64,000 nucleotides of DNA from Escherichia coli (lineage in GTDB: Bacteria; Pseudomonadota; Gammaproteobacteria; Enterobacterales; Enterobacteriaceae). The translations under genes and the position numbers were made by a program. Below the pieces are notes generated by a model. The model saw only the letters and a program-made list of their open reading frames with translations. It had not been told where the DNA came from and did not search any database. The DNA is taken from NCBI RefSeq assembly GCF_050920415.1, contig NZ_CP169309.1; one strand, given 5' to 3'. Each line of letters begins with the position of its first letter. Position 1 is the first letter of the stretch. Below are positions 63,629 through 64,000 of the stretch, one piece after another.

Positions 63629-63680
63629 TGCTCACTTCCTTTTTCTTATTAAGATTTGGCGCGGCAGGTCGCGCCTTTTT

Positions 63681-64000
63681 TTACTGCCCGGCGATTTTCA
63701 TCTCCGGCAACAGCACAGAACCACACTGTATATTGCTGCGTGTTTCAATATCGTTACCGACGGTGACAATATTGCGCCACATATCTTTTAAATTACCTGC
63801 GATGGTGATTTCGCTAACCGGATACTGAATTTCGCCATTCTCTACCCAGAAGCCCGCAGCACCACGGGAATAATCACCGGTAATGGCACTCACGCCCTGG
63901 CCCATCAGCTCCGTCACCACCAGCCCGGTGCCCATCTCTTTGAGCATTTGTTCGAAGCTTAGCCCTTGCCCGGCAATCCGCCAGTTGTGAATACCGCCCG
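63681..64000 (-). CDS. pmbA: Metalloprotease PmbA/TldE, 3' end only (gene continues past the window end)
   Basis: Minus-strand ORF open to the window edge, ending ...[15 protein letters not shown]; position next to cybC. Confidence 0.65.

Follow-up and report, generated by a model that had tools for sequence, protein, structure and literature searches.

The window analysed here is a 64,000-nucleotide stretch of Escherichia coli DNA, near one end of which the nrdDG operon on the plus strand converges on cybC and pmbA, two co-directional genes on the minus strand (Table 1). The pmbA-cybC spacer comprises 52 nt in total and represents a short form of this junction, without a 126-bp insert of the ERIC family that many other strains carry. 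It contains a GC-rich hairpin that is directly followed, on the plus strand, by a run of seven T residues. As both flanking genes lie on the minus strand, the signal formed by the hairpin and its T-run is antisense to both.

Table 1. Features at and around the pmbA-cybC junction of the window (a dot marks features given without a strand).
Feature	Position	Strand	Remarks
nrdD	60437-62575	+	ORF; E. coli core locus
nrdG	62733-63197	+	Ends the nrdDG operon; no other source of plus-strand transcription toward the GC hairpin identified
nrdG/cybC hairpin	63202-63233	.	Between convergent genes; strong; U-tract on neither side; from folding
cybC	63242-63628	-	Cytochrome b562; in this strain, TAA at codon 3 (63620-63622) ends the frame prematurely
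Rest of pmbA-cybC spacer	63629-63657	-	A/U-rich; cybC Shine-Dalgarno AAGGAAG at 63635-63641
GC hairpin	63658-63675	.	GGCGCG/GCAGGT/CGCGCC; from sequence and folding; orthologues in 5 genera
T7 run	63676-63682	+	Serves as U-tract in the plus-strand terminator signal; read as A7 from the minus strand
pmbA (tldE), 3' part	63681-64000	-	Stop codon TAA at 63681-63683
126-bp insert	absent, between ~63645 and 63646		L001 3851-3976 = K-12 4459350-4459475

The initial annotation of the window had described a hairpin followed by seven T on the plus strand, antisense to cybC and pmbA, and this description was borne out by the sequence, by the fold and by the rarity of such motifs. Positions 63658-63682 of the plus strand read GGCGCGGCAGGTCGCGCC followed by TTTTTTT. 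The proposed division into ggcgcg-gcaggtc-gcgcc was right in substance, but the arm boundaries were misplaced, as the arms are 6+6. The stem has six base pairs, all G/C, with a 6-nt loop, or seven pairs including a G-U pair with a 4-nt loop, and folding yields about -11 to -13.6 kcal/mol for each of the two strands. The T7 run abuts the stem directly, and its last two bases are part of the pmbA stop codon (the complement of TAA). On the minus strand the homopolymer precedes the hairpin, as had been annotated; the order there is A7, the stem-loop GGCGCG/ACCTGC/CGCGCC beginning 5 nt past the pmbA stop codon, and the tail AAAUCUUAAUAAG.

To place this motif in context, both strands of the 64 kb were searched for stems of at least 6 bp with at least five G-C pairs that are directly followed by at least seven T. 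There were two occurrences of this quality, compared to a mean of 0.03 in 100 dinucleotide shuffles. The folding energy of the hairpin is unexceptional for its composition (z of about -1.1 to -1.4), and the motif is non-random because a perfect GC stem abuts a T-run, not because of the folding energy. The other occurrence, at 50294-50319 on the plus strand (GCCCCTCAATCGAGGGGC followed by T8), is the classical pyrBI attenuator, since the ORF of the PyrL leader peptide ends there and pyrB (50343-51278) begins shortly afterwards. A further canonical terminator on the plus strand (41926-41951; GGCCGGAGCATGCTCCGGCC followed by T6) is slightly weaker than these two motifs and is located between convergent genes, 22 nt past the stop of a 951-residue ORF that, judged by its size, we take to be valS.

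Scans against Rfam 15 at a permissive E-value gave no match over the hairpin that reached a gathering score. The STnc480, RyhB, toxic sRNA and suhB matches that were returned are at chance level (E = 1.1-7.3, far below gathering) and driven by the terminator-like shape, and were rejected. Genomes with the 70-nt region have one copy of it each, which sets it apart from REP/BIME elements.

The strength of the hairpin as a terminator was compared between strands using an index, d, that combines hairpin energy and T-tail according to the formula of d'Aubenton-Carafa et al. (1990) with ViennaRNA energies; it was calibrated on three benchmarks only, namely the pyrBI attenuator and the sense terminators of Atlantibacter and Pantoea, and its values are relative. 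On the plus strand, which is antisense to pmbA, the window hairpin and its T7 run scored +30, close to the Pantoea terminator after pmbA (+33, sense) and the Atlantibacter pmbA hairpin (+35, sense) and below the pyrBI attenuator (+50, plus strand). Its tail score of 4.85, with UUUUUUU starting at the first base past the stem, likewise compares with 5.13 for the pyrBI attenuator. A GC stem of at least 5 bp, a loop of 3-8 nt and an immediate U-tract are thus all present on this strand. By structure, the plus-strand motif reads as an ordinary and unremarkable Rho-independent terminator of benchmark quality, unusual only in being antisense to both of its neighbours.

The minus strand gave a different result. 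There the tail begins with AAA, no U-tract follows the stem, and d falls to -50 with a tail score of 0.42. The first positions of the tail, occupied here by three A residues, matter most for intrinsic termination. The hairpin had also been proposed to act as a weaker bidirectional terminator for pmbA, and this finds no support, as the sense score is far below threshold. Nor is it bidirectional in the usual sense, with a U-tract on one strand only and with pmbA and cybC co-directional. Sense scores in all Escherichia and Citrobacter were similarly low (-35 to -55), with Kluyvera at -16. Antisense scores were -8 in the common short form of E. coli (D9 type) and -51 to -56 in K-12, E2348/69 and E. 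albertii (-51 in K-12). The window is consequently the sole Escherichia form with a canonical signal, and it has that signal on the plus strand only.

Plus-strand transcription that might supply this signal has one identified source. The nearest co-oriented unit, nrdDG, ends 460 nt upstream, behind a hairpin that lacks a U-tract and with the whole of antisense cybC in between. That nrdG/cybC hairpin is very stable (-19.5 kcal/mol with z = -3.9 on the plus strand, -23.3 kcal/mol with z = -7.5 on the minus strand), and its scores as a terminator are low, both as the nrdG 3' hairpin (d = -53, plus strand) and as the cybC 3' hairpin (d = -32, minus strand); it is a candidate for a collision-type or processing-type convergent terminator. 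Apart from it, the plus strand between nrdG and the pmbA hairpin has one weak 5-bp motif (63290-63303), and the first canonical plus-strand terminator after nrdG is the pmbA hairpin with its T7 run. Any plus-strand RNA reaching this point would be antisense to all of cybC. A scan of 62000-64000 for sigma-70-like promoters found none on either strand, the cybC spacer included, and the stretch from nrdG to the hairpin likewise has no promoter-like site on the plus strand. Judged by eye, the best candidate upstream on that strand has 7/12 matches, and its start would fall inside the hairpin. An sRNA ending at the plus-strand terminator was considered and rejected, based on the lack of a sigma-70-like promoter in that interval.

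The exact 70-nt variant of the window was found in 20 of 5,426 complete E. coli genomes (0.4%). In 3,886 of these genomes (72%), a 126-bp palindromic insert (TTACAC...GTGTAA) is located between the hairpin and the cybC ribosome-binding site, and every other Escherichia species that was sampled has it too. As a divergent version of the element, the insert is single-copy per genome at megablast sensitivity, and it aligns end-to-end with the ERIC copies of the same spacer in Citrobacter and Salmonella. The 186-nt stretch around it has a folding energy of -74.8 kcal/mol (z = -8.5). The remaining E. coli genomes, about 25-28%, have the short form, and those sampled read TAAAAAACT-GGCGCGACCTGCCGCGCC-AAATCTTCATAAT; the proportions of D9-type and K-12-type sequences are approximate, as BLAST joins split matches. 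The empty-site spacer of the short form resembles that of Citrobacter, which makes the insert an insertion polymorphism that spans species.

The common short form has A6 and a CT spacer, the K-12 long form has a 5-bp stem and the spacer, and in the window lineage CT is replaced by A, leaving A7 flush with a perfect stem. The textbook plus-strand terminator is therefore recent and lineage-specific, having arisen when a small indel altered a hairpin and A-run that were already in place. One genome has no hairpin at all. In strain JNE141411 (L069 401-500) a deletion fuses the 3' end of pmbA to the middle of the ERIC-type insert, removing the pmbA stop codon, the whole GC hairpin and half of the insert, such that the annotated pmbA is five codons longer. 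Because this strain lacks the hairpin entirely, the hairpin is dispensable.

Among 57 cybC loci, with one genome per species, pmbA-cybC synteny is kept from Escherichia to Pantoea, Serratia and Yersinia, and a convergent nrdG beside the pair occurs only in Escherichia and a few others. An 18-nt hairpin of 6+6+6 layout immediately past the pmbA stop was identified in Escherichia, some Citrobacter, Atlantibacter, Kluyvera, Kosakonia and Enterobacter EA-1, a placement kept in 5 genera. After the pmbA stop, the sense strand of Escherichia species reads TAA-A(3-5)-CT-GGCGCGACCTGCCGCGC(T/C). Citrobacter amalonaticus and Citrobacter spp. Awk4, NCU1 and R56 have the identical 18-mer with the upstream A-run absent (TCCCGGAT, TCTCAAAT, TCCTCTGT), and R56 and NCU1 have a convergent nrdG as well, yet no T-run on the plus-strand side. 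The place of the hairpin is taken, in most other Citrobacter and Salmonella, by an ERIC element or just a short A/T-rich spacer.

In two of the remaining genera, Atlantibacter and Kluyvera, the run of T residues is found on the other side of the stem. Atlantibacter reads GGCGCG AGGCAT CGCGCC TTTTTTAT on the sense strand and Kluyvera, where the T-run is weaker, GGGCGCA TCCTGC TGCGCCC GTTTTGCTT; Kosakonia and Enterobacter EA-1 read GGCGC(A/G/T)...TGCGCC TTTAGCG. Pantoea and an Erwinia MAG have unrelated stems followed by T6-7, which in this position form canonical terminators on the sense strand. The A-run upstream of the stem, seen on the plus strand as the T-run, is specific to Escherichia, where it is 5-7 nt long; it is interrupted in E. 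albertii, and in other Escherichia an A5-A7 run is set off from the stem by CT. The canonical plus-strand form is rare, and its T-run is absent outside the genus. Based on the sense T-runs and the shared position in relatives, the hairpin is ancestrally a 3'-end structure of pmbA, and our conclusion is that it is an old sense-strand feature which in some genera has the form of a canonical pmbA terminator.

In an anchored alignment of 13 distinct versions of the hairpin, 92% of the cells formed pairs, compared to 26-64% with slid partners. Five different loops are represented, and there are double changes at two end pairs, the apical G-C to A-U and the outer U-A to G-C. Five core pairs are invariant, and the observed covariation score was reached in 47/500 shuffles. 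The covariation is suggestive, not significant. Escherichia and Citrobacter share the 18-mer down to its loop, and this identity could stem from a constraint that is sequence-specific or acts on the DNA, instead of one on RNA structure.

Published maps of transcript 3' ends in K-12 were consulted for the equivalent region. Adams et al. 2021 (PMC7815308), who studied MG1655 in LB and M63, report no curated 3' ends between 4457270 and 4463010 on either strand. They do report a region of Rho termination at 4460186 (+), antisense to nrdG, and therefore sense transcription runs through cybC and beyond. The TRS data (PMC10687069) are from MG1655 in exponential phase in LB or minimal medium, and the word "anaerobic" is absent from the text. 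They include a sense 3' terminus at 4459461-4459476, whose peak at 4459472 (L001 3973) coincides with the 3' base of the ERIC-type palindrome, and a second sense terminus at 4459896-4459905 (4459899), just beyond the cybC/nrdG hairpin. None of the TRS termini listed is at the GC hairpin (~4459319-4459336) on either strand, and among the ends listed in the two aerobic K-12 datasets none on the minus strand is near 4459305-4459312.

In K-12, then, transcription on the sense strand continues past the GC hairpin, and 3' ends at this locus coincide with stable stem-loops that have no U-tract. The far more stable ERIC palindrome downstream would mask any end at the GC hairpin. The initial annotation had pointed to about 63680-63690 as the place where transcripts should end, and the lack of a listed end on either strand at the equivalent positions formally counts against it in these maps, which were obtained from aerobic cultures of a strain with the weaker hairpin variant (d = -51) and the 126-bp insert. 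The nrdDG operon is FNR-activated and poorly expressed aerobically. Because of the weak variant, the insert and aerobic growth with low nrdDG expression, the K-12 maps are indecisive for the window strain. The TERMITe and SMRT-Cappable-seq supplements do not mention pmbA, cybC or nrdDG. Searches of the literature for the literal sequence of the hairpin region returned only a tldE cloning primer, and those for cybC with pmbA, or nrdDG with terminator, returned nothing relevant.

Together, these data lead us to favor, as the probable explanation, that the hairpin is a 3' stem-loop of pmbA that is read through into cybC and has become incidentally competent as an antisense terminator in the window lineage. 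It would be the conserved 3'-end stem-loop of the pmbA (tldE) transcript, and with no sense U-tract in Escherichia, RNA polymerase would mostly continue into cybC. Read-through from pmbA into cybC is expected because the spacer is only 52 nt and cybC has no recognisable promoter. On the sense strand, the hairpin may at most form a barrier to 3'-to-5' exonucleases and provide a stable end for the pmbA segment, a role that we infer for a hairpin at which the K-12 maps list no 3' end on either strand.

The A-run of Escherichia spans the pmbA stop codon, and in the window lineage a small indel removed the 2-nt CT spacer, bringing A7 against the perfect stem. Read on the opposite strand, the hairpin with U7 is predicted to be a canonical intrinsic terminator that should stop polymerase arriving from nrdDG before it enters pmbA in vivo. 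Such read-in is conceivable because the nrdG hairpin has no U-tract and the T7 hairpin is the next canonical signal on the plus strand. The suggestion that the element stops antisense or read-in transcription is physically reasonable on these grounds. The hairpin is nevertheless not primarily a plus-strand element, but the pmbA 3' hairpin of several genera, and its canonical antisense form is confined to 20 of 5,426 E. coli genomes. The antisense competence is most likely incidental, a by-product of recent mutation on a pre-existing hairpin and A-run rather than a long-selected function.

It seems unlikely to us, although worth weighing, that the element is instead, as in the main reading of the initial annotation, a dedicated antisense insulator, selected to stop nrdDG read-through or spurious antisense RNA that would collide with or silence pmbA. 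Such a role would suit the canonical plus-strand signal in the window, its place as the first of its kind past nrdG, 460 nt on, and the gene order in Escherichia, where nrdG is convergent and adjacent and ends in a 3' hairpin without a U-tract. E. coli, the cryptic clades and E. whittamii all retain 5-7 nt of A/T-run beside the hairpin; across E. coli and the cryptic clades this seems more than chance would give and leaves room for selection on the antisense side. However, the canonical version occurs in 0.4% of E. coli and the majority forms score as borderline or negative. The interruption of the T-run in E. albertii, and its absence in Citrobacter R56 and NCU1 despite an identical hairpin and convergent nrdG, also argue against an insulator, as does the retention of the hairpin in genera without anything like a plus-strand terminator. 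Nor do the aerobic K-12 datasets list the minus-strand end, or the sequence between nrdG and the hairpin the promoter-like feed, that an insulator would lead one to expect.

More doubtful is a functional role in ending or attenuating pmbA transcription on the sense strand, weakly or with the help of a factor, which would limit transcription into cybC and make the element bidirectional in the window lineage. The position, 5 nt past the pmbA stop, is typical of a terminator. The Atlantibacter orthologue and the Pantoea and Erwinia analogues are canonical sense terminators, with Kluyvera and Kosakonia intermediate, and the K-12 3' ends at the cybC/nrdG hairpin and the ERIC palindrome match hairpins that also lack a U-tract. 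Against these points, the sense tail starts with three A and scores far below threshold, and K-12 transcripts, for which the maps list no sense end directly behind the hairpin, reach at least 4459472 and 4459899. Efficient termination would, moreover, silence cybC, which has no visible promoter of its own.

We give little credence to a more elaborate scenario in which, under anaerobic conditions, an FNR-induced nrdDG transcript passes the nrdG hairpin, acquires a 3' UTR of ~490 nt that is perfectly antisense to all of cybC and its ribosome-binding site, and ends at the hairpin with U7. If it were true, induction of the anaerobic ribonucleotide reductase would be coupled to silencing of the periplasmic cytochrome b562 while pmbA was insulated, and the strength of the effect would vary among E. 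coli lineages with the hairpin and T-run variant and the ERIC insert. Equally improbable is that the element is a DNA-level palindrome (a protein operator, or a target or landmark for ERIC/MITE insertion) or has no function, its terminator-like look being irrelevant: the 18-mer identical with its loop in Escherichia and several Citrobacter despite differing flanks, the ERIC-family insertion a few bases away in 72% of E. coli, the ERIC copies in the same spacer of other Citrobacter and Salmonella and the strain without any hairpin would fit, but in the other genera loops vary freely and the stem still pairs, two of its pairs having undergone double changes, so that hairpin pairing in RNA or DNA fits better than a sequence-specific operator, and no known motif or Rfam family matched.

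The reading that we favor, a pmbA 3' stem-loop with incidental antisense competence, can be set beside several known types of element. Canonical intrinsic terminators such as the pyrBI attenuator and the valS terminator share with it a 6-7 bp GC stem, a short loop and an uninterrupted U7, and the pyrBI attenuator is similar in hairpin energy and tail score; unlike them, the window signal is antisense to both neighbours and its canonical form is limited to a rare lineage. Ju and co-workers reportedly described, in 2019, bidirectional terminators of convergent gene pairs. As in the bidirectional terminators of convergent genes treated by Wang et al. (preprint 10.1101/2022.10.23.513370), one hairpin is accompanied here by a homopolymer that serves the opposite strand. 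The Atlantibacter orthologue, with A4 upstream and U6 downstream, has the classical bidirectional layout of A-tract, hairpin and U-tract. The window element differs in that it has a U-tract on one side only (sense tail AAAUCUU) and lies between co-directional genes, and the truly convergent nrdG/cybC junction has another hairpin.

A further type comprises stem-loops that stabilise intercistronic or 3'-terminal segments, as known from REP/BIME hairpins and from selective RNA processing and stabilisation. The window element resembles these in being a GC hairpin without a U-tract past a stop codon, in a probable polycistronic transcript, with an A/U-rich single-stranded stretch after it, and the K-12 sense 3' ends at the 3' base of stable stem-loops at the same locus add to the likeness. 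In contrast to the REP/BIME stabilisers, it is not a REP sequence but a single 6-bp stem, much weaker than the ERIC palindrome (~ -75 kcal/mol). ERIC/IRU elements are a neighbouring feature in most E. coli and absent from the window.

The finding carries little weight beyond annotation, other than as an example of an intrinsic-terminator signal that changes strand in evolution, with a sense U-tract in some genera, none in Escherichia and an indel-made terminator on the opposite strand in one E. coli lineage. Terminator predictors, and those who give a sequence its first reading, can also take a warning from it, as strand assignment from one genome can mislead. K-12 is itself unrepresentative at this locus: it has the 126-bp ERIC-type insert, its hairpin is weaker and its cybC is damaged in another way.

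With respect to cybC, codon 3 is changed from AAA to TAA in the window strain, and cybC is intact in the nearest relative, MFDS1022581. None of the genomes in the collection is 100% identical to the window over 63150-64000, and the codon-3 stop may be private to the window strain or a sequencing error. In K-12, cybC is inactivated otherwise, by a 26-bp deletion that removes the start codon.

Two further observations concern nrdDG. The spacer between nrdD and nrdG has three overlapping, sub-threshold matches to naRNA4, a REP-derived family, on alternating strands (62562-62714), which suggests a BIME/REP cluster. The TRS data (PMC10687069) include a K-12 3' end in the equivalent spacer, at 4460461 on the minus strand. 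Between nrdG and cybC, some E. coli strains carry a RelE/RelB-type toxin-antitoxin pair, as in strain 631 (L004 549-1071), where the pair abuts the nrdG stop.
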